Source: Escherichia coli (GTDB lineage: Bacteria > Pseudomonadota > Gammaproteobacteria > Enterobacterales > Enterobacteriaceae). Taken from it: DNA of 64,000 nt. Location of the stretch: assembly GCF_009931435.1 (NCBI RefSeq), contig NZ_CP043414.1. One strand, 5' to 3'. A program made the translations under genes and the position numbers. The notes under the pieces were generated by a model that was given only the letters and a program-made list of their open reading frames with translations, did not search any database and had not been told where the DNA came from. The stretch's first letter is position 1, and the number at the start of each line of letters is the position of its first letter. Shown here one piece after another: positions 1 to 12,154 of the stretch.

Positions 1-952
<952 letters not shown>

Positions 953-1281
953 CTATTTGTTAGTGAATAAAAGGTTGCCTGTAAAATTACAAAAACCTTA
1001 CGCAGCGTCAAGCGGAATCGTGTCAATCATTGCGACAAATCAATCCTGTGCCTAAGCATTATGCGACTGACTCGCCTCACTCTTCCTTTGGGCTTGAGAC
1101 CACATGGGGTCGGCGCCCCGAATTTTAAAGGGCAATTACGATAAAAATGTGATTTTCATCACGATTTAGGTGCAGCCATTTCGTCGAGATCAAGTTTAGG
1201 ACAAAATTTTGCCAGTTGGTGTTAATGTTTTGTTAGAATCAGTCACGTAATGTGAGCACGATTAAAGTGAGATGTGAGCAA

Positions 1282-1695
1282 ATGGCTAATAAACCTTCGG
1301 CAGAAGAACTGAAAAAAAATTTGTCCGAGATGCAGTTCTACGTGACGCAGAATCATGGGACAGAGCCGCCATTTACGGGTCGTTTACTGCATAACAAGCG
1401 TGACGGCGTATATCACTGTTTGATCTGCGATGCCCCGCTGTTTCATTCCCAAACCAAGTATGATTCCGGCTGTGGCTGGCCCAGTTTCTACGAACCGGTG
1501 AGTGAAGAATCCATTCGTTATATCAAAGACTTGTCACATGGAATGCAGCGCATAGAAATTCGTTGCGGTAACTGTGATGCCCATCTGGGGCATGTCTTCC
1601 CCGACGGGCCACAGCCAACGGGTGAACGTTATTGTGTTAACTCAGCCTCTTTACGCTTTACCGATGGCGAAAACGGCGAAGAAATCAACGGTTGA
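1282..1695 (+). CDS. msrB: Peptide methionine sulfoxide reductase B
   Basis: ORF 1252-1695; internal Met gives 137 aa [12 protein letters not shown]..., CxxC zinc motifs. Confidence 0.93.
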
Positions 1696-1736
1696 AAAAA
1701 CGATTCAGCAACTTATTCCACAGGAGCGGAAAATTT

Positions 1737-2009
1737 ATGAATCTTGATGACATTATCAACAGCATGACGCCTGAGGTATACCAGCGTTTGTCGACAGCCG
1801 TTGAACTGGGTAAGTGGCCAGATGGCGTTGCGCTGACCGAGGAACAAAAAGAGAACTGCCTACAGCTGGTGATGCTGTGGCAAGCCCGCCATAATACCGA
1901 AGCACAGCATATGACAATTGACACACATGGTCAGATGGTTATGAAGAGCAAACAACAGTTAAAAGAAGATTTTGGTATCTCAGCAAAGCCTATTGCCATG
2001 TTTAAATGA
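1737..2009 (+). CDS. yeaC: DUF1315 family protein YeaC
   Basis: 90-aa product MNLDDIINSMTPEVYQRL...; GGAG-containing RBS upstream. Confidence 0.85.
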   Translation: MNLDDIINSMTPEVYQRLSTAVELGKWPDGVALTEEQKENCLQLVMLWQARHNTEAQHMTIDTHGQMVMKSKQQLKEDFGISAKPIAMFK

Positions 2010-2124
2010 TTGAATTATTCAGCTTTTTGAGTCTGTTATTAAGTGCGAACAAAAATACTTGTTTGACGTCTTGATTGTTCGATTTAGCGGTTGATAGGTT
2101 AAATGCAACACTGACGAGTATAAC

Positions 2125-2159
2125 CTGGCCTACGATGTCAATGAGGAAATGTAGGCCAG
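2125..2159. other. Perfect 9-bp inverted repeat (ctggcctac / gtaggccag) with 17-nt loop, between convergent yeaC and pncA
   Basis: Read directly from sequence; lies 19 bp past the pncA stop. Confidence 0.5.
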
Positions 2160-2177
2160 AGATGTATTCAACTAATA

Positions 2178-2819
2178 TTACTCCTGCGTCTCTTCCCAGT
2201 CTGCCAGCGTATATAGCGTTGCCCCAGCTGCTGACATCTCCATAAACGCGTGCGCACTGTCCTGTGGCTGGATATTCACGCCACGACAACCATCGGTAAT
2301 CACATTAACCTTATAACCTAACTGTAACGCGTCCAGCACGGTAAACTTCACGCAATAGTCAGTAGCCAGGCCCATAATGATCAATTCATCGATTTCATGA
2401 TCGCGTAACCAGTCATCGAGCGTGGTTTTCTGCCGACGGCCGTTATCAAAAAAGGCACTGTAACTGTCAACTAAAGGATTTTCGCCTTTATGGAACACCG
2501 CTGCGATCGCTTTTTGGTTCAGTAACGGATGTAATTGTGCGCCTTCACTGTTCTGCACACAGTGATCTGGCCAGAAGGTTTGTGGCAAACCGTCGAGTTG
2601 GCCTGGCGTATAAGGCTCTACACCGTGCTGACTGGCAAAACTGCCGTGATTCGCCGGGTGCCAGTCTTGACTGGCGATAACCGCTTCACCGCGCGACTGG
2701 CACCAGTCAATCAGGCGGTTAGCGACATCCACCGTACTGTCACCTTCCGGCACGGCGAGCGCGCCACCAGCACAGAAATCATTTTGTAAATCGACCAGTA
2801 ACAGGGCGCGAGGGGGCAT
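2178..2819 (-). CDS. pncA: Nicotinamidase / pyrazinamidase
   Basis: 213-aa product MPPRALLLVDLQNDFCAGG...; AGGAG RBS. Confidence 0.93.
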   Translation of the reverse strand: MPPRALLLVDLQNDFCAGGALAVPEGDSTVDVANRLIDWCQSRGEAVIASQDWHPANHGSFASQHGVEPYTPGQLDGLPQTFWPDHCVQNSEGAQLHPLLNQKAIAAVFHKGENPLVDSYSAFFDNGRRQKTTLDDWLRDHEIDELIIMGLATDYCVKFTVLDALQLGYKVNVITDGCRGVNIQPQDSAHAFMEMSAAGATLYTLADWEETQE

Positions 2820-2829
2820 TGCAGTCTCC

Positions 2830-3846
2830 TTAATCATCCGGCGTCAGTTCGCCGCGCAGGTTTTGGCTCATGGCCTTGCGAATGGTTTCAGTATCCAGTT
2901 CCTGGCTAAGCAGGTAATGCAGTTTGGTTAGCGTGGCTTCTACAGTCATATCTGCACCGCCAATAACGCCGGCATGGGCGAGGGCGTTACCAGTGGCATA
3001 ACCCCCCATGTTCACTTTGCCGGACATACATTGTGTCAGGTTGACTACCACAATTCCGCGATCGCTGGCTTCTTGTAATTCTTGCAGGAAGGCTTTGTTT
3101 TGTGGCGCATTACCCACGCCATATGAGCGCAGAATCAATGCCTTCACCGGTTGGCGCAGAAAATTGCGCACGACGTCAGCAGAAATCCCTGGATAAATCG
3201 TCACTACGCCAATCGGTTGTGGGGTGATTGGATGAACGATCAATTCCCCTTCACCGTGCGGGGCGGGTGGCGTATTCAAACGACGAATATGGATACCTGC
3301 TTCCAGTAACGGAGGAAGGTTTGGAGAGGCAAACGCATCAAAACCATCGGCATGGGCTTTGGTGGTACGGTTGCCACGATAAAGTCGATTATTAAAAAAG
3401 AGAGTTACTTCGTTGATAGGATAATTCGCCGCAACGTACAACGCATTCAGCAGATTAATTTGTCCGTCAGAGCGTAACTCAGCCAGCGGGATTTGTGACC
3501 CTGTCACAATGACCGGTTTACCGAGATTCTCGAGCATGAACGACAGCGCAGAGGCGGTATACGCCATCGTGTCGGTGCCGTGCAGAATGACAAAACCATC
3601 ATAGTCGTCATAATGCGCTTTAATATCTTCAGCAATATGCTGCCAGTCTTCTGGCGTCATATCTGAAGAGTCCATCAGCGGCGTATATTCATGAATGGTG
3701 AAATCTGGCATCTCCGGGCGATGGAATTCCGGCATCAGCGCCAGTTGGCGTTGTAGATGACCTGACACCGGAATATAACCCTGCTCGGAACGCTGCATCC
3801 CGATGGTCCCGCCCGTGTAGGCGACGTAAATTGATTTCTTTTGCAT
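2830..3846 (-). CDS. ansA: L-asparaginase I (cytoplasmic)
   Basis: 338-aa product MQKKSIYVAYTGGTIGMQ... Confidence 0.95.
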   Translation of the reverse strand: MQKKSIYVAYTGGTIGMQRSEQGYIPVSGHLQRQLALMPEFHRPEMPDFTIHEYTPLMDSSDMTPEDWQHIAEDIKAHYDDYDGFVILHGTDTMAYTASALSFMLENLGKPVIVTGSQIPLAELRSDGQINLLNALYVAANYPINEVTLFFNNRLYRGNRTTKAHADGFDAFASPNLPPLLEAGIHIRRLNTPPAPHGEGELIVHPITPQPIGVVTIYPGISADVVRNFLRQPVKALILRSYGVGNAPQNKAFLQELQEASDRGIVVVNLTQCMSGKVNMGGYATGNALAHAGVIGGADMTVEATLTKLHYLLSQELDTETIRKAMSQNLRGELTPDD

Positions 3847-3977
3847 GATATTGATATGAATGATATCGAAAGAGCAAAAGTATATACGTGAGGGGCAGCG
3901 AGCGCACCTGGATACTCTGTGGATATGAGAAAAGTCCGGCAGAACGGAGGGATTAGTGTCCCGCCGGAGAAAAGTGG

Positions 3978-4790
3978 TTAATCCTGCAACGCATAGGTTA
4001 CGGTGGTTACTACGCGTACCGTTTTATTAATCGCCGTAGGATCATCTTCATCACTGCCACTGGCGAAGATCTGGAACACGCCTTGTGAGGCATCGCTAAT
4101 TGACCCCACCTGGCTACCTGAGTCCGTTGCAAATTGTAATGCTGCGTTGCGTGCATCTTTGGTGGCGGCGGCAATCATCTCAGCGCGCAGTGCGCCAATA
4201 CCATTAAAGCGATAGGCGACTTTGCTCTCAGCGATAGCGCCCTCCGTAGCGACTTGCAGTTCGTTTAATTTCGCGACGACTTTTTCGACAGCAGCAACAT
4301 TATGGGTTTTTATCGTCACTGACCCGTCTGCGTTATAGCGTGGCATTGTGGGATCATCTTTCAGATAAAAGGAATCTGTTCGCTTGCTTGTCCATTGGCC
4401 CAGGGTTATCTCTTTCTCGTTAATCCCCTGAGCATTGAGTTCGGCAACAATTTTTTTCTGCGCGTCTTCCAGTTTCGGGAACAGTTCGCCGGGAATATTA
4501 CCCTTAAAGTTAATCGCAATTGTTAATTCTGCCGTATCTGCGCGAACTTCTTTTTCAGAAAGCCCACGCACATTTACATAACGGTTATTGGTTTTTAAAT
4601 GTTTAACACCATCGCCAACAAAATAACCACAGGCGCTAATCCCCAGTCCGAGGACGATAGCGGCAATTAAAGAGGGGGCCTTATTCACTGATGACTCCAT
4701 ATCAGATGCTAAATGAGCAAGGGAATGTAGTGGAGAGAGGGAGTGAAAGACAGTCCGATTCAGGAGTGTGGCCGACAGCATATCGGCCAC
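3978..4790 (-). CDS. SIMPL/DUF541-like putative lipoprotein (YggE-like); likely true start near 4701 (MESSVNK...)
   Basis: 270-aa ORF; hydrophobic leader with lipobox-like ISAC, then a fold pattern resembling the SIMPL family; no strong SD at either candidate start. Confidence 0.6.
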   Translation of the reverse strand: MADMLSATLLNRTVFHSLSPLHSLAHLASDMESSVNKAPSLIAAIVLGLGISACGYFVGDGVKHLKTNNRYVNVRGLSEKEVRADTAELTIAINFKGNIPGELFPKLEDAQKKIVAELNAQGINEKEITLGQWTSKRTDSFYLKDDPTMPRYNADGSVTIKTHNVAAVEKVVAKLNELQVATEGAIAESKVAYRFNGIGALRAEMIAAATKDARNAALQFATDSGSQVGSISDASQGVFQIFASGSDEDDPTAINKTVRVVTTVTYALQD

Positions 4791-4803
4791 ATTTTTGCAG
4801 GAT

Positions 4804-6660
4804 TTAACGCACGTTGGCGCAGGTCAGGCAAAACGCATAACGGTTTTGTGGGTCGTTAAACGCTGCCAGCTTGTCGCTTTCACTTTTAACGGTAGAGGCT
4901 ACCGAGGCCAGCGGTGCAGGTAACATGGCCTGGAACGCATCTGGCAACATTGCCCGGACAGAACCAGACATATTGTCCATCACTTTGTCGAAGAAGGTCG
5001 GTTCATCAACGTAGTATTCCAGATGCCACTGTTTCACTTTTGCCAGCTCTGCTGCTTTGGCAACCGCATCATCGAAATCTCCGAGACTATCGACCAGCCC
5101 GTTAGCTTTTGCATCCTGACCGGTCCAGACGTGGCCCTGGGCGATTTTATCAATCTGCTCCGGCGTCGAATGACGCGCATCAGCAACCAGCGTGATAAAG
5201 CGTTTATAGCCATTCTCAATGCTTAACTGCATCATCTGCTGCGCTTCCGGCGGCAGTGCCTTGGTGATAGAAACATCCGCCAGCGGTGAAGTTGAGACGC
5301 CATCGGTATGAACACCAATCGAATCCAAACTATTTTCTACGGTAGTGATCACGCCGAAGATACCGATAGAACCGGTCAGGGTGCTGGGGTTAGCCACAAT
5401 GTAATTAGCTGGCGTGGAAATCCAGTAACCACCAGATGCCGCCATGCCGCCCATCGATACAACCACAGGCTTACCCGCTGCCCTGGCGGCTGCCAGTTCA
5501 GCGCGAATCACTTCAGAGGCGGTAACGCTGCCGCCAGGGCTATTAACACGCAGAACAATCGCTTTCACTTTCGGGTCAAGGCGAGCGTCGCGGATTTGTG
5601 CCGCAGTGGTATCACCGCCAACATTCCCCTGAGTTTCCTCGCCATCCATAATTGCGCCATTCGCGAAGACGACACCGATGCTGTCACCGGTATCTGCCGG
5701 CGTTTTCAATGCGTAATCGTAATAACTGATGGCGCGATAATTTTTATCAGTCTTACTCCAGCCGAACTCTTTGGTCAGAGCTTTTTCGATTTCGGCACTT
5801 GATGCCAGTGCATCGACCAGCTTGTTTTCCAGCGCATATTTCGCGGTATCGCCACCTGTTTTGGTTAAACCCTCAAGCAACCCTTGCGCACCAGGGAATA
5901 CCTGCTGAGCAGGGATCTGCCGGTTAGCGGCAACAGTATTCAGATAGTTTTGCCACAGCTCACCGATCCAGCGGCTGTCAGCTTCGCGGGCTGCCGGTGA
6001 CATATCATCACGAATAAACGGTTCAACGGCAGATTTATACGTACCCACGCGGAACACATGGGTGGAGACTTTCAGCTTATCCAGTAACGATTTGTAGTAC
6101 AGACCGTTGGTAGCAAAACCGTGCAGATCCACCACGCCTTGTGGAGATAGCCAAATTTTGTTGGCGAAACTGGCGAGATAATATTGCCCCTGGCTGTAGT
6201 TCTCGCCTATGGCATAAACTGGCTTCCCGCTGTCACGAAACTCTTTCAGGGCTTTGCCGATGTACTGCATAGACGGCTGGTCGCCGCCTGCGAAGTTTTT
6301 CAGATCCATCACGATACCGGTGATATTGCGGTCGTCCTTCGCCTGGCGAATGGTGTTGACGATATCAAACAGTGAGTTTTCCTGCAGACGGTCGGAACTG
6401 GCACCAAGGAGCTGGCGGCTTAGCTTACTAAACCGCTGAGAACTGTCGGGTTTATCGACGATTACACCAGATATGTCCAGCAGCAGCGCGCCACGACTGG
6501 CCGTTTCTTTCGAATCACCACCTCTGACCTGCATCCAGATCCCCACACCAACCAGTACGAGAAAAATAAAGAACAGGTTAAGTACCATTTCACGGACGAA
6601 ATTCAGCAGACGCCACGTCCATTTAAAAAATCCGGCAATAAATCGCCAAAGGGTTCGCAT
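4804..6660 (-). CDS. sppA: Signal peptide peptidase A (protease IV)
   Basis: 618-aa product from internal Met [14 protein letters not shown]... Confidence 0.95.
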
Positions 6661-6820
6661 GTATTCTCCCAACTTAAGGTCACACCTGTCACAGGCGCAA
6701 TAGATGTGGTTATCGTAATGACCCAACCGGCACTTGTCAGCAGGAATTGCGGACTGTGCTGTAACAAAATCCACTCTCGTGTTAATTTTGTGAATAAATA
6801 TCATGACAGGAGTTAATCAA

Positions 6821-7372
6821 ATGGATGCACTCGAACTATTGATCAATCGCCGTAGCGCCTCCCGCCTGGCTGAACCTGCGCCAACGGGTGAACAACTGCA
6901 AAACATCCTGCGTGCGGGTATGCGTGCCCCGGACCATAAGTCCATGCAACCGTGGCATTTTTTTGTGATTGAAGGGGAAGGACGCGAGCGTTTCAGCGCA
7001 TTATTGGAACAGGGGGCGATTGCTGCCGGTAGTGATGACAAAGCTATCGACAAAGCGCGTAATGCGCCGTTCCGCGCACCGCTCATCATAACGGTGGTGG
7101 CAAAATGCGAAGAAAATCATAAAGTCCCGCGCTGGGAACAGGAAATGTCTGCGGGATGTGCGGTCATGGCGATGCAAATGGCAGCAGTTGCCCAGGGGTT
7201 TGGCGGTATCTGGCGCAGTGGCGCATTAACTGAAAGTCCGGTAGTGCGTGAAGCATTCGGTTGCCGTGAGCAGGATAAAATTGTCGGTTTTCTCTACCTT
7301 GGTACGCCGCAGTTGAAAGCATCTACGTCGATAAACGTCCCGGACCCGACGCCGTTTGTGACTTATTTCTGA
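6821..7372 (+). CDS. ydjA: Nitroreductase-family protein YdjA
   Basis: 183-aa product [16 protein letters not shown]...; divergent from sppA. Confidence 0.88.
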
Positions 7373-7488
7373 TAATTGTCGCGAAACTGTCTGGATTGTG
7401 AGCAAAGGCGCAGGAATTCAGACACTCTCACTTATCACTTCATGGAATGAGGGTTACCATACCCGGATTGCATTGACAGGAGATGTCC

Positions 7489-8532
7489 ATGAGCGAGAAC
7501 TCGATTCGTTTGACCCAATACAGCCACGGTGCAGGTTGCGGCTGTAAAATTTCCCCAAAAGTGTTGGAGACCATCCTGCACAGTGAGCAGGCGAAGTTTG
7601 TTGATCCGAATTTGCTTGTGGGTAATGAAACCCGCGACGATGCGGCGGTGTACGATCTGGGCAATGGCACCAGCGTTATCAGTACCACCGACTTCTTTAT
7701 GCCGATCGTTGATAATCCTTTCGATTTTGGCCGCATTGCGGCGACTAACGCCATCAGCGATATCTTCGCGATGGGTGGCAAACCGATTATGGCGATTGCG
7801 ATCCTCGGCTGGCCTATTAACAAACTTTCCCCTGAAATTGCCCGCGAAGTAACCGAAGGTGGACGCTATGCATGCCGTCAGGCGGGTATTGCGCTGGCTG
7901 GCGGTCACTCCATCGATGCGCCGGAGCCGATTTTTGGTCTGGCGGTAACGGGGATCGTACCGACCGAGCGGGTGAAGAAAAACAGTACTGCACAAGCCGG
8001 ATGCAAACTGTTCCTGACGAAACCGCTGGGAATTGGCGTTCTTACTACGGCTGAGAAAAAATCACTGCTGAAACCAGAACATCAGGGACTAGCGACGGAA
8101 GTGATGTGCCGGATGAATATTGCAGGCGCGTCCTTTGCCAACATCGAAGGCGTAAAAGCGATGACTGACGTGACTGGTTTTGGTCTGCTGGGGCATTTGA
8201 GCGAAATGTGTCAGGGTGCTGGTGTGCAGGCGCGAGTCGACTATGACGCGATCCCGAAACTGCCGGGGGTTGAAGAGTACATTAAGTTGGGCGCAGTGCC
8301 TGGCGGCACCGAACGTAACTTTGCCAGCTATGGGCATCTGATGGGTGAAATGCCGCGTGAAGTGCGCGATCTGCTGTGCGATCCGCAAACTTCTGGCGGT
8401 CTGCTGCTGGCGGTCATGCCGGAAGCAGAAAATGAGGTCAAAGCTACAGCCGCCGAGTTTGGCATTGAACTGACGGCGATTGGCGAACTGGTGCCAGCGC
8501 GCGGCGGTCGTGCCATGGTTGAGATCCGTTAA
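7489..8532 (+). CDS. selD: Selenide, water dikinase (selenophosphate synthetase)
   Basis: 347-aa product [23 protein letters not shown]... Confidence 0.95.
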
Positions 8533-8536
8533 TTCA

Positions 8537-10492
8537 ATGCGGTTGTTTATTGCCGAAAAACCGAGTCTGGCGCGCGCCATTGCTGATGTCCTGCCCAAAC
8601 CGCACCGGAAAGGCGATGGCTTTATCGAGTGCGGTAATGGCCAGGTGGTGACCTGGTGTATCGGTCACCTGCTTGAGCAGGCGCAGCCAGACGCCTACGA
8701 CAGTCGCTATGCGCGCTGGAACCTGGCCGATCTCCCCATTGTCCCGGAAAAGTGGCAATTACAGCCACGACCCTCCGTGACCAAACAACTTAATGTGATC
8801 AAACGCTTCCTGCATGAAGCCAGCGAAATCGTTCACGCCGGGGACCCGGATCGCGAAGGACAATTGCTGGTGGATGAAGTGCTGGACTACCTGCAACTGG
8901 CACCGGAAAAGCGCCAGCAGGTACAGCGTTGTTTGATAAACGACCTGAACCCGCAGGCGGTTGAGCGGGCGATCGATCGTCTTCGCTCCAATAGCGAGTT
9001 TGTACCACTGTGCGTTTCTGCGCTGGCGCGAGCACGAGCCGACTGGTTATACGGCATCAATATGACCCGCGCGTACACCATTCTCGGTCGTAATGCGGGT
9101 TATCAGGGCGTGCTTTCCGTGGGACGCGTGCAGACGCCCGTGCTCGGGCTGGTGGTGCGCCGCGATGAAGAAATTGAAAACTTCGTGGCTAAAGACTTCT
9201 TTGAAGTCAAAGCGCATATCGTGACACCTGCCGATGAGCGGTTTACCGCTATCTGGCAACCGAGCGAAGCGTGTGAACCGTACCAGGATGAAGAAGGGCG
9301 CTTGTTACATCGTCCGCTGGCGGAGCATGTAGTTAACCGCATTAGTGGTCAACCGGCTATTGTCACCAGCTATAACGATAAACGGGAATCAGAATCCGCG
9401 CCGCTGCCGTTTTCGCTTTCGGCGTTGCAGATTGAAGCGGCAAAACGCTTTGGTCTGAGCGCGCAGAATGTGCTTGATATTTGCCAGAAGCTGTACGAAA
9501 CGCACAAGCTAATCACTTATCCGCGTTCCGATTGTCGCTATTTGCCAGAAGAACATTTTGCCGGACGCCACGCGGTGATGAATGCTATCGGCGTCCATGC
9601 GCCGGATCTGTTGCCGCAACCAGTGGTAGATCCAGATATACGCAACCGCTGTTGGGATGACAAAAAGGTCGATGCGCACCACGCCATCATCCCGACCGCG
9701 AGGAGTTCTGCCATCAACCTGACGGAAAACGAGGCGAAGGTCTATAACCTGATTGCTCGTCAGTATTTGATGCAGTTCTGTCCGGACGCGGTGTTCCGCA
9801 AGTGTGTTATCGAACTGGAAATAGCCAAAGGCAAATTTGTCGCTAAAGCCCGTTTTCTAGCTGAAGCAGGCTGGCGCACGCTGTTAGGCAGCAAAGAGCG
9901 CGATGAAGAAAACGACGGCACGCCACTGCCTGTGGTGGCGAAAGGCGATGAGTTGCTGTGTGAAAAAGGTGAAGTGGTAGAGCGGCAAACCCAGCCGCCG
10001 CGCCATTTTACCGATGCAACACTGCTTTCGGCGATGACCGGGATCGCGCGCTTTGTGCAGGACAAAGATCTGAAAAAGATCCTTCGTGCCACCGATGGTC
10101 TGGGGACAGAAGCGACTCGCGCCGGGATTATTGAACTGCTGTTCAAGCGAGGCTTCCTGACCAAAAAAGGGCGCTATATCCACTCCACCGACGCCGGAAA
10201 AGCATTATTCCATTCGCTGCCAGAGATGGCGACGCGACCGGACATGACCGCGCACTGGGAATCGGTGCTGACGCAAATCAGCGAAAAGCAGTGTCGCTAT
10301 CAGGACTTTATGCAACCGTTGGTGGGGACGCTGTATCAGTTGATTGATCAGGCCAAACGTACGCCGGTGCGGCAGTTTCGCGGCATAGTGGCTCCAGATG
10401 GCGGAGAAGGAAATAAAAAGACTTCATCACGTAAGCGAGCAGCGAAAAAAAGCCCGCCATCAGCAGAGGCGGGCAGTGGAGTGATAATGTAA
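8537..10492 (+). CDS. topB: DNA topoisomerase III
   Basis: 651-aa product [19 protein letters not shown]... Confidence 0.95.
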
Positions 10493-10517
10493 TGCTCTGA
10501 TGCAGTCAGTTTTCGTA

Positions 10518-10548
10518 GGCCAGATAAGGCGTTCACGCCGCATCTGGC
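10518..10548. repeat. REP (repetitive extragenic palindrome) element
   Basis: ggccagataaggcgttcacgccgcatctggc matches the classic REP core; between convergent topB and gdhA. Confidence 0.6.
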
Positions 10549-10575
10549 ATAAACGCCTGAAACGGCGCTAATGAC

Positions 10576-11919
10576 TTAAATCACCCCCTGCGCCAGCATC
10601 GCATCGGCAACCTTCACAAAACCGGCAATGTTCGCGCCCTGCACGTAGTTGGTTTGCTCACCTTCACCACCATGCTCAACACAGGCATGGTGGATATCCA
10701 GCATGATGTGATGCAAACGTGCGTCAACTTTCTCGGCTTTCCAGCCCAGGCGCGCAGCGTTTTGCGCCATTTCCAGGCCGGATGTAGCTACGCCACCAGC
10801 ATTAGCCGCTTTACCCGGTGCAAACAGTACGCCTGCCTGCTGGAACAGTTCAGTCGCTTCGATGGTGGTCGGCATATTTGCCCCTTCGGCGACGGCTTTA
10901 ACGCCATTGGCGATAAGCTGATGCGCGGCGTCTACATCCAGTTCGTTCTGGGTGGCGCAAGGCAGGGCGATATCAACCGGTACAGACCACGGCTGTTGGC
11001 CTTCGAGATAGACCAGGCCAAATTCTTTGGCGTAATCTGCCACTCGACCATCGCGGCTGGCTTTGATTTCGATAAGACGTGCCAGTTTCTCTTTAGTGAA
11101 TCCGCTTTCATCAACGACAGTGCCACTGGAATCTGACGCAGTAATCACACGGGCACCAAATTCCATCGCTTTTTCGATAGCGTACTGAGCGACGTTGCCG
11201 GAGCCAGAAACGGAAACGCGCATCCCTTCAAAACCCATACCGTGGCGTTTTAGCATTGCTTCTGTGAAATAAACCAGACCGTAGCCGGTTGCTTCCGGGC
11301 GAATAAGACTGCCGCCAAAAGAAAGCCCCTTACCGGTGAAGACGCAGGCGGTATTGTTGGAGAGCTTTTTCATCATCCCCGCCATAAAGCCGACTTCACG
11401 ACCACCAACGCCGATATCACCTGCCGGAACGTCGGTATCCGCGCCCAGGTGGCGATACAGTTCAGTCATCAGGGCCTGGCAAAAACGCATCACTTCACCT
11501 TCGCTTTTTCCTTTCGGATCGAAATCGCTGCCACCTTTACCACCGCCCATCGGCAGGGTAGTCAGGGCATTTTTGAAGGTTTGCTCGAAGCCGAGAAATT
11601 TGAGAATGGAGAGGTTAACTGACGGATGGAAACGCATACCGCCTTTGTACGGGCCGATGGCGGAGCTGAACTGCACGCGCCATGCACGGTTGACCTGTAC
11701 CTGGTTGCGATCGTCAACCCATACCACGCGAAACTGGATCACGCGCTCCGGTTCAACCAGACGCTCCAGTAATGACATTTGGCGATATTTTGGATTTTGT
11801 TCAAGAAAAGGCCAGAGTGTGGTCATTACTTCACGAACGGCTTGCGCGAACTCGGTTTGATTCGGGTCGCGCTTTTGGACATGGTTGAGGAATGACTCCA
11901 GAGAATATGTCTGATCCAT
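10576..11919 (-). CDS. gdhA: NADP-specific glutamate dehydrogenase
   Basis: 447-aa product MDQTYSLESFLNHVQKRDP... Confidence 0.97.
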   Translation of the reverse strand: MDQTYSLESFLNHVQKRDPNQTEFAQAVREVMTTLWPFLEQNPKYRQMSLLERLVEPERVIQFRVVWVDDRNQVQVNRAWRVQFSSAIGPYKGGMRFHPSVNLSILKFLGFEQTFKNALTTLPMGGGKGGSDFDPKGKSEGEVMRFCQALMTELYRHLGADTDVPAGDIGVGGREVGFMAGMMKKLSNNTACVFTGKGLSFGGSLIRPEATGYGLVYFTEAMLKRHGMGFEGMRVSVSGSGNVAQYAIEKAMEFGARVITASDSSGTVVDESGFTKEKLARLIEIKASRDGRVADYAKEFGLVYLEGQQPWSVPVDIALPCATQNELDVDAAHQLIANGVKAVAEGANMPTTIEATELFQQAGVLFAPGKAANAGGVATSGLEMAQNAARLGWKAEKVDARLHHIMLDIHHACVEHGGEGEQTNYVQGANIAGFVKVADAMLAQGVI

Positions 11920-12154
11920 AGATATAAAACCCTTATATATTAATACGATTATGCTTATGTTGTTTATGTCATGTGCTTTTGCAGTTTTCGACTATACCAT
12001 CAAGAATGTGACGGTAAGCAAGAAAAAAATGACTCACGAAAGCAAATTAATAACGGGAGAAATCTCATAACCAAAAGCGATAACTCAGACGCTAAAGTTT
12101 TGCCGCCAGGCTACCGTTATCAGTAACAGAGACAAAAACGTTAAGGAGTTCCCT

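Follow-up and report, generated by a model that had tools for sequence, protein, structure and literature searches.

An accessory gene between sppA and ansA of Escherichia coli encoding a predicted envelope protein of the SIMPL/DUF541 superfamily

INTRODUCTION

Of the described proteins with a SIMPL (DUF541) domain, Brucella BP26 (Omp28) carries a cleavable signal peptide and no retained anchor and has reportedly been published as a 16-mer. In E. coli, yggE is a core gene that is present in K-12 too, whereas the SIMPL gene described here is accessory. BP26 is called a periplasmic protein in one report (PMC3311636) and, according to another, self-assembles into a barrel-like particle (PMC12915080). 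It has also been reported to bind host extracellular matrix, an activity with no known counterpart for the protein described here (PMC6884894). The available portion of a further report gives YggE as the only E. coli SIMPL protein with a proposed role, namely, protection against oxidative stress (PMC12489995). A different DUF541 protein is given as "likely not a lipoprotein" in a Bacteroides LolB preprint, and a flagellar-motor preprint (PMC11870540) makes no mention of SIMPL.

The gene studied here lies in a 64,000-nucleotide stretch of E. coli contig NZ_CP043414.1 (assembly GCF_009931435.1), referred to below as the window. We regard it with good confidence as an accessory gene that is intact and expressed and whose 236-aa product is an envelope protein belonging to the SIMPL/DUF541 superfamily.

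RESULTS AND DISCUSSION

Locus layout and comparison with K-12

The minus strand of the window carries, in order, sppA (4804-6660), an open reading frame (3978-4790), ansA (2830-3846), and pncA.

4804..6660, minus strand: sppA, signal peptide peptidase, 618 aa, upstream flank (RefSeq annotation of the identical locus)
2830..3846, minus strand: ansA, asparaginase I, downstream flank (ORF call and RefSeq annotation)
approximately 3970..4766, no strand: stretch absent in K-12-type E. coli, net 791 bp (pairwise and multispecies alignments), its exact ends ambiguous within a few T-rich bases

The sppA-ansA spacer is 957 bp long in the window versus 166 bp, with no gene, in K-12 MG1655. Pairwise alignment leaves K-12 a net 791 bp shorter, with the whole open reading frame and its leader missing. 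The first-pass annotation, made from the letters of the window, had given a K-12 gap of about 0.2 kb and reported an extra open reading frame on the same strand. Both statements agree with these measurements: nothing lies within the 166 bp of K-12, and the frame at 3978-4790 (minus strand) has no counterpart in MG1655. The K-12 position was checked for the same gene and lacks it.

Gene model and translation start

3978..4688, minus strand: gene for the 236-aa SIMPL/DUF541 protein, stop codon included (ORF, RefSeq CDS, PF04402, dN/dS of 0.06 to 0.12)
4686..4698, minus strand: translation start, GTG at 4686-4688 with a 6-nt spacer and the Shine-Dalgarno sequence GGAG at 4695-4698 (conservation in Escherichia)

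The longest frame encodes 270 aa and, as had been pointed out, begins 13 nt past the sppA stop. Its GTG (4788-4790) forms part of the post-sppA hairpin stem. The 34 codons that this frame adds are broken by a stop in E. albertii and have an unrelated sequence in their place in E. fergusonii; in a Citrobacter-type copy the frame is already closed one codon upstream. The ATG at 4700 occurs only in E. coli, with AAG in its place in the other Escherichia species of the leader alignment. That alignment covers five lineages (E. coli, O157, E. whittamii, E. albertii, and E. fergusonii), in all of which the GTG and (A)AGGAG/GGAA are invariant; in all three species other than E. coli the Shine-Dalgarno sequence reads AAGGAG, and GATA(A/T)GGAGTCATCA-GTG is essentially invariant across the five leaders. 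RefSeq calls the identical 236-aa product, WP_001030438.1, from a strain that is identical over the locus. Because the GTG at 4688 and its GGAG are conserved, the upstream extension is not, and RefSeq gives the same product, the start is not ambiguous, and comparison among the lineages places the predicted start of translation at GTG 4688 behind GGAG. An ambiguous start with no strong Shine-Dalgarno sequence at any candidate, as had been described, is thus replaced by a single conserved one, and the 270-aa model, whose GTG at 4790 lies inside the post-sppA hairpin and whose extension is not conserved, gives way to one of 236 aa.

Transcription signals

4767..4791, minus strand: post-sppA hairpin, 11-bp stem, no U-tract in this allele, holding the spurious GTG 4788-4790 (fold of -21 kcal/mol, z of -3.9)
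4743..4766, minus strand: 24-nt conserved noncoding block (CTCCTGAATCGGACTGTCTTTCAC) directly past the hairpin (alignment)
3925..3968, minus strand: terminator-like hairpin past the SIMPL stop, 11-bp stem, 12-nt loop (3935-3968), tail CUUUUCUCAU (fold)

The post-sppA hairpin is conserved throughout, in K-12 as in every Escherichia copy. Only E. fergusonii and the K-12-type alleles have a T-run behind it, which completes a canonical terminator; gene-bearing E. coli, E. albertii, and E. whittamii lack the T-run. Since the hairpin has no U-tract in this allele, at least partial read-through is probable, and transcription would probably enter the SIMPL gene at least partly from sppA. The missing U-tract and coinduction in one microarray condition (see below) suggest such read-through, and a hairpin of -21 kcal/mol still separates the two genes; read-through into the SIMPL gene is plausible but unproven. 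The long frame, which had been offered as evidence for cotranscription with sppA, does not bear on the question, being an artefact of the GTG in the post-sppA hairpin.

The 24-nt block at 4743-4766 differs by 0 to 4 substitutions over the five Escherichia lineages, with 3 of 24 positions changed in E. fergusonii, where the spacer around it is poorly conserved. The block does not occur in K-12, nor at the Citrobacter-type and other loci. A sigma-E-like promoter within it, sought by hand, was unconvincing and was dropped. A scan of positions 3700-5000 found no sigma-70 consensus promoter, and no Rfam family matched within 3600-5000 at an E value of 1 or better.

At the other end of the gene, a hairpin with a U-rich tail had been proposed at 3928-3965, before the ansA promoter. 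It was recovered close by, at about 3935-3968, upstream of the conserved ansA promoter region. With its tail CUUUUCUC it folds at -21 kcal/mol (z of -3.9), and none of 200 shuffles folds as well; its 12-nt loop and interrupted U-run place it below a strict terminator consensus in the scan of 3700-5000. A diverged counterpart is retained in K-12. Transcription of the SIMPL gene probably ends at this hairpin.

Existing annotation and expression

The gene is already known as a publicly annotated accessory gene of O157:H7 and other E. coli. The window product is identical to WP_001030438.1, "SIMPL domain-containing protein," and the database entries Z2800 (EDL933), ECs2473 (Sakai), WP_001030438.1, and WP_001030441.1 represent the same gene. 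The Z2800/ECs2473 alleles of O157:H7 differ from the window allele by about 2.4% at the DNA level. AAG56753.1 of EDL933 ("orf; hypothetical protein") is a 267-aa form of the O157 allele; its model starts upstream, at an ATG three codons into the 270-aa frame, whereas the conserved start gives 236 aa. Residue 68 of AAG56753.1 is a tyrosine and corresponds to Tyr37 of the 236-aa protein. This agrees with the phosphotyrosine peptide, with site Y68, that has been reported for Z2800 in enterohemorrhagic E. coli (PMC3681748).

For strain Sakai, ECs2472 is given as protease IV, ECs2473 as a "hypothetical lipoprotein," and ECs2474 as ansA, and ECs2473 is listed as absent from MG1655, with its nearest outside match in E. 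albertii (PMC4940412). On lettuce cell-wall polysaccharide, ECs2473 was upregulated 11.7-fold, sppA 4.2-fold, and ansA 3.9-fold; with spinach root exudate, sppA was downregulated 4.8-fold and ECs2473 was unchanged (PMC4940412). The database entries, the microarray mRNA, and the phosphopeptide together indicate that the gene is annotated, transcribed, and translated.

Distribution in E. coli and the deletion

The gene was found in 943 of 5426 complete E. coli genomes as a single chromosomal copy, each of the 943 matches covering 80% or more of the query with an identity of 95% or higher. The match is at least 99% identical in 585 genomes (ST131 and relatives) and about 97.6% identical in 358 (O157:H7, O55:H7, and O145). 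The K-12 junction was recovered at an identity of at least 93% from 4481 of the 5426 genomes (about 83%), including K-12, UTI89, and O26 and O111 strains. We take UTI89 and ST131 to belong to phylogroup B2 and the O26/O111 strains to B1. The recurrence of the same junction in K-12, O26/O111, and UTI89 points to one shared deletion allele. The gene was lost through a single deletion of about 0.8 kb, today present in about 83% of complete E. coli genomes. The K-12-type deletion allele keeps a diverged copy of the sequence directly past the SIMPL stop. IS1 splits the gene in some genomes, and the other matches listed are annotated as one full-length CDS. A search of plasmids returned only distant homologues of less than 40% identity (Borrelia, Vibrio, Azospirillum, and others), so nothing pointed to the gene being carried on plasmids.

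Together, the shared deletion junction and the corrected 236-aa model could provide an easy marker for scoring the presence or absence of the gene. Many uncharacterized accessory envelope genes, this one among them, set clinically important lineages (ST131 and O157:H7) apart from K-12; its significance beyond such bookkeeping is small, and it opens no long-standing question.

Relatives at the same site and history of the gene

The order sppA-SIMPL-ansA is shared by E. albertii (86% amino acid identity), E. fergusonii (70%), and E. whittamii (92%). E. whittamii was among the matches listed by the contig search, which was no exhaustive census; E. albertii and E. fergusonii were not. The same 90% cluster includes members named E. 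marmotae and Shigella flexneri. The same order was present on a short contig whose SppA is 97 to 98% identical to that of the Citrobacter freundii complex, and on two more contigs from more divergent enterobacteria. Comparative evidence of this kind shows the gene to be ancestral at the sppA-ansA site in Escherichia and at least one Citrobacter.

The dS values of the SIMPL gene against O157, E. whittamii, E. albertii, and E. fergusonii were 0.08, 0.57, 1.20, and 1.61, respectively, and those of sppA in the same four comparisons were 0.10, 0.57, 0.73, and 1.63; the gene exceeds its sppA flank for E. albertii only. Against its orthologues, dN/dS was 0.06 to 0.12, a substitution pattern that shows purifying selection acting on the predicted protein.

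These results were weighed against the alternative that ST131 and O157 acquired the gene recently as an islet, instead of keeping an ancestral gene lost elsewhere. The GC content of the SIMPL gene is 47.7% versus 50.7 to 52.1% in the flanks, so that base composition is slightly lower than that of the flanks and not equal to it, as had been stated; GC3 is 45.6% versus 52 to 55%, which would favor import. The patchy presence within E. coli, with the gene in ST131 but not in UTI89 (both of which we take to be B2), would favor it too, as would the nearest relatives outside Enterobacteriaceae, which among the matches listed are just 46 to 58% identical and mostly metagenomic proteins from environmental samples; the named ones among them are from a Phycisphaerales, an Alphaproteobacteria, and a Rickettsiales metagenome-assembled genome. 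However, the gene occupies the identical site in four other Escherichia species and on Citrobacter-like contigs, and in three of the four comparisons, those with O157, E. whittamii, and E. fergusonii, its dS is near that of the flanks. No genomic-island features (mobility ORFs or integrase, repeats, or a tRNA site) were found adjacent to the gene, and at the one junction common to all genomes that lack it, a diverged form of the terminator of the gene itself persists. Recent import is close to refuted and, in our estimate, exceedingly improbable. The first-pass annotation had judged the gene not to be a recent import, and the shared site in other Escherichia and on the Citrobacter contig, with dS roughly tracking that of the flanks, bears this out. 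Distribution, synteny, and dS taken together argue for a long-resident gene since lost by most E. coli.

Loss from most E. coli and the splitting by IS1 in some genomes could also be read as signs of a decaying relic without function. Against this, dN/dS stays at 0.06 to 0.12 over divergences up to saturation, all 943 carriers match at least 80% of the query at no less than 95% identity, and the matches listed are full length except for the IS1-split cases. The start codon and Shine-Dalgarno sequence are conserved, and both mRNA and a peptide have been detected. We give the relic explanation hardly any weight.

Family and fold

3993..4577, minus strand: SIMPL domain, residues 38-232 (Pfam 72-266 of the 270-aa frame; AlphaFold; Foldseek)

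The protein matches Pfam SIMPL (PF04402) with an E value of 4.8e-18 and 66.6 bits over positions 1-205 of the 205-position model. The proposed membership in SIMPL/DUF541, for which a missing SIMPL match would have been telling, is confirmed by this significant full-length match. The accompanying description as YggE-like is right at the superfamily level only. As an orthologue of YggE the protein was rejected: it scores 18.9 bits (E value of 7.8e-4) against the NCBIfam equivalog NF008299, whose cutoff is 249, and because of this score we regard it as a distant paralogue of YggE.

The AlphaFold model, built on 107 homologues, has a mean pLDDT of 90.2, with one helix at residues 4-33 followed by an alpha/beta domain. 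The protein thus has an N-terminal hydrophobic segment of about 23 residues and then a two-lobed SIMPL fold. Foldseek returned 7c50 of Campylobacter jejuni first (E value of 4.4e-18, 32% identity, target TM-score of 0.80) and Brucella BP26 (4hvz) second (E value of 6.3e-13). By phmmer, the closest solved sequences were PDB 10am, "Periplasmic protein" (nine chains; E value of 1e-27), and 7c50/7c51, "SIMPL domain-containing protein" (E value of 4e-26), the alignment to 10am running from residue 9 through the hydrophobic segment to the C terminus.

Most of the invariant residues belong to the core or are structural (R36, V38, V40, G42, E45, the helix M171-A187, Q202, G203, and R225), and no catalytic constellation was evident among the conserved residues of the 26- and 107-sequence alignments. 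None of the PADLOC defense models matched the protein at an E value of 0.01 or better. The layout of the C. jejuni-type helix-anchored subfamily was found, in that the segment with G16, G21, and G25 is joined directly to the domain via R36-x-V38-x-V40-x-G42, and R36, V38, V40, and G42 are invariant in both alignments.

Membrane anchor

4611..4679, minus strand: hydrophobic anchor, residues 4-26 (SLIAAIVLGLGISACGYFVGD), with the lipobox I-S-A-C and G16, G21, and G25

The lipoprotein-type leader ending in LGLGISAC that had been noticed in the window does satisfy a PROSITE-style rule, with Cys20 of the 236-aa form (codon at 4629-4631) as its cysteine. The rule asks for [LVI][ASTVI][GAS]C, a Cys at position 15 to 35, a basic residue in the first seven, and an uncharged hydrophobic region, and MNKAPSLIAAIVLGLGISAC conforms to it with the Cys at position 20. 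Sequences of E. coli, E. whittamii, E. albertii, and the Citrobacter-type copy all conform. The Cys is not conserved among orthologues, the same-locus copies P0009 and P0010 having Gly and Ala, respectively, and E. fergusonii has at -1 a Val that the rule disallows. Among the distant homologues of the 26-sequence alignment, none has a Cys at position 20, and Cys20 is confined to Escherichia and one Citrobacter-type copy.

G16, G21, and G25 are invariant in the 26 sequences and at least 90% conserved in the 107. The hydrophobic segment is conserved across phyla, including G16 before the putative cleavage site and G21xxxG25 after it. This family-wide conserved segment behaves, to judge from the alignments, like a retained, packing transmembrane helix and not like a discarded signal peptide. 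Because the Cys is absent in relatives and the glycine-rich segment is conserved family-wide, we place an uncleaved anchor slightly above lipidation; a transmembrane helix that stays uncleaved and packs through G21xxxG25 is, on balance, the somewhat favored prediction.

If the protein were instead a genuine lipoprotein, Lgt would lipidate Cys20, LspA would remove residues 1-19, and Lol, given the Gly at +2, would deliver the product to the outer membrane, on its inner leaflet. The n-region MNK, a hydrophobic region of 13 to 16 residues, and I-S-A-C with Cys20 are what such a protein would have, and the rule holds in four lineages; ECs2473 is named "hypothetical lipoprotein," and one UniRef cluster is named "Lipoprotein." However, P0009 and P0010 carry Gly and Ala for the Cys, E. 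fergusonii has Val at -1, and the Cys occurs in no distant homologue of the 26-sequence alignment, while G16 upstream is conserved family-wide. Moreover, the residues GYFVG after the Cys are hydrophobic, and the AlphaFold helix is continuous through the site. We consider lipidation a serious possibility that falls short of an even chance. It would also imply that the Escherichia/Citrobacter branch swapped an inner-membrane helix anchor for a lipid anchor, to which we extend the same tentative credence.

Basic residues after the hydrophobic segment (K29, K32, R36, and R41) outnumber those before it (K3). This charge bias and the reported phosphotyrosine at Tyr37 fit awkwardly with a periplasmic domain, and they are comfortable with neither the helix anchor nor the lipoprotein.

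An extended scenario is that a Gly/Ala-to-Cys change in the conserved helix made a working lipobox, so that the protein would be anchored in the inner membrane in some enterobacteria and be an outer-membrane lipoprotein in ST131 and O157, perhaps working with SppA, whose transcript reads in. We regard this combination as unlikely. If true, the anchor switch would be a natural example of relocation across the periplasm within one orthologous group at one site. The Cys20 question is a small testable case of helix anchor versus lipid anchor.

Possible function and partners

The protein would be inserted in a Sec-dependent manner and stay tethered to a membrane, with its SIMPL domain in the periplasm. 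The domain has no conserved catalytic constellation. The protein would most likely form an oligomer that serves, without enzymatic activity, as a scaffold or binding module and is of use during envelope or oxidative stress. The stress-protection part of this proposal is borrowed by analogy from YggE, a distant paralogue (18.9 bits versus 249). Self-association may be expected, given the GxxxG motif and the particle formed by BP26; the nine chains of PDB 10am are suggestive of an oligomer too. The gene is probably dispensable.

A partnership with SppA was considered, in which a tethered periplasmic protein made from the sppA transcript would modulate signal-peptide clearance or protect or regulate protease IV. 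The order sppA then SIMPL on the same strand recurs in at least seven enterobacterial lineages, the post-sppA U-tract is lost in gene-bearing E. coli, and sppA and ECs2473 were both induced on lettuce cell-wall polysaccharide. However, vertical descent within one family explains the synteny. When ORFs within 4 kb were compared at 80 loci of other phyla, the only recurring neighbor families reflected lineage-specific synteny (Acidobacteria), and sppA was never among them. A T-run hairpin lies between the two genes in E. fergusonii and on the P0009 contig, 83% of E. coli manage without the gene, and with spinach root exudate sppA fell 4.8-fold while ECs2473 did not change. The neighborhood is uninformative on function, since the 80 distant loci have only lineage-specific synteny, and an obligate partner, SppA included, is unlikely because distant homologues have no conserved neighbors. 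We therefore rate the specific role with SppA as quite improbable.

Comparison with known systems

YggE, the E. coli "oxidative stress defense protein" (NF008299), belongs to the same Pfam superfamily and the same organism as the window protein but is encoded at a different locus. Brucella BP26/Omp28 (4hvz) shares the SIMPL fold (Foldseek E value of 6.3e-13, probability of 1.00), with 18% identity, a root mean square deviation of 7.7 Å, and a TM-score of about 0.5 to the window protein; both are envelope or periplasmic proteins, the window protein by prediction. The C. jejuni SIMPL-like protein (7c50/7c51) is just about 32% identical and, in the aligned part, has no Cys at the Cys20 position. 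Nevertheless, it and the near-identical full-length 10am chain are of the same length class as the window protein and have the same arrangement of a hydrophobic N terminus followed by one SIMPL domain.

Possible mosaic structure around the SIMPL gene

The closest match to positions 1-12000 of the window in the complete-genome set was strain RMDEC465, with 99.1% identity over 12 kb; in that strain, the matched stretch includes ltrA, a group II intron gene. The complete-genome set lacks the window's own lineage. Identity at the yeaC-pncA junction fell to 93.9% in most other genomes, whereas the segment carrying the SIMPL gene, which encodes a 236-aa SIMPL/DUF541 protein between sppA and ansA, was 100% identical to that of an ST131-like strain. 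This disparity between sequence segments suggests that region 1-12000 is a mosaic.

In the window, yeaC (1692-2009) adjoins pncA (2178-2819) across a spacer at 2010-2177. K-12 has an eight-gene cluster, ydjE-ydjL, between pncA and yeaC; the window lacks it, and pncA therefore abuts yeaC and msrB. The same adjacency without ydjE-ydjL was found in 1089 of 5426 complete E. coli genomes, and pncA also adjoins yeaC in L005, an E. fergusonii contig with the same sppA-SIMPL-ansA order. Strain 2020CK-00188 has a SIMPL gene identical to that of the window, yet it retains ydjE and ydjF.

When L005 was compared with the window, sppA, pncA, and ydjA gave dS values of 1.6 to 2.4 and ansA was past saturation, but selD, next to ydjA, reached just 0.21. 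Along the selD-to-pncA stretch of L005, divergence changes sharply between ydjA and selD. Judged by these substitution levels, it is as if part of the region had had a separate history in the E. fergusonii lineage.

The SIMPL gene is cut into two annotated pieces by IS1 in NZ_OX030701.1, NZ_AP022032.1, and NZ_AP021998.1, indicating that it is still undergoing inactivation in lineages that retained it.

Features of the SIMPL gene and its product

Two short features on the minus strand were examined:
4743-4766, minus strand: 24-nt non-coding block CTCCTGAATCGGACTGTCTTTCAC, directly after the sppA hairpin (the conserved stem following the sppA stop)
4578-4580, minus strand: Tyr37 codon of the SIMPL gene

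The 24-nt block is changed at 3 of 24 positions in E. fergusonii, where the surrounding spacer is poorly conserved; copies of the Citrobacter type and those from other enterobacteria lack it. Neither a promoter consensus nor an Rfam match accounts for it.

Phosphotyrosine has been reported in EHEC at Y68 of Z2800, the EDL933 allele, which corresponds to Tyr37 (PMC3681748). Tyr37 lies four residues past the predicted membrane helix, within the invariant R-Y-V-x-V-R-G motif; a phosphotyrosine there sits oddly with the periplasmic exposure expected of this residue.

In the plasmid collection, 22 plasmids from Borrelia and 15 Vibrio replicons carried distant homologues of the helix-anchored SIMPL subfamily, with about 30 to 36% identity among the matches listed. 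The closest solved sequence to the SIMPL gene product was PDB 10am (entry name "Periplasmic protein"; full-length, 231 residues, nine chains). This entry was not among the Foldseek PDB results (library entries with release dates no later than 8 April 2026), and the literature search found no publication for it. PDB 10am is nearly identical to a C. jejuni SIMPL-like protein and may reveal the assembly mode of the helix-anchored subfamily.
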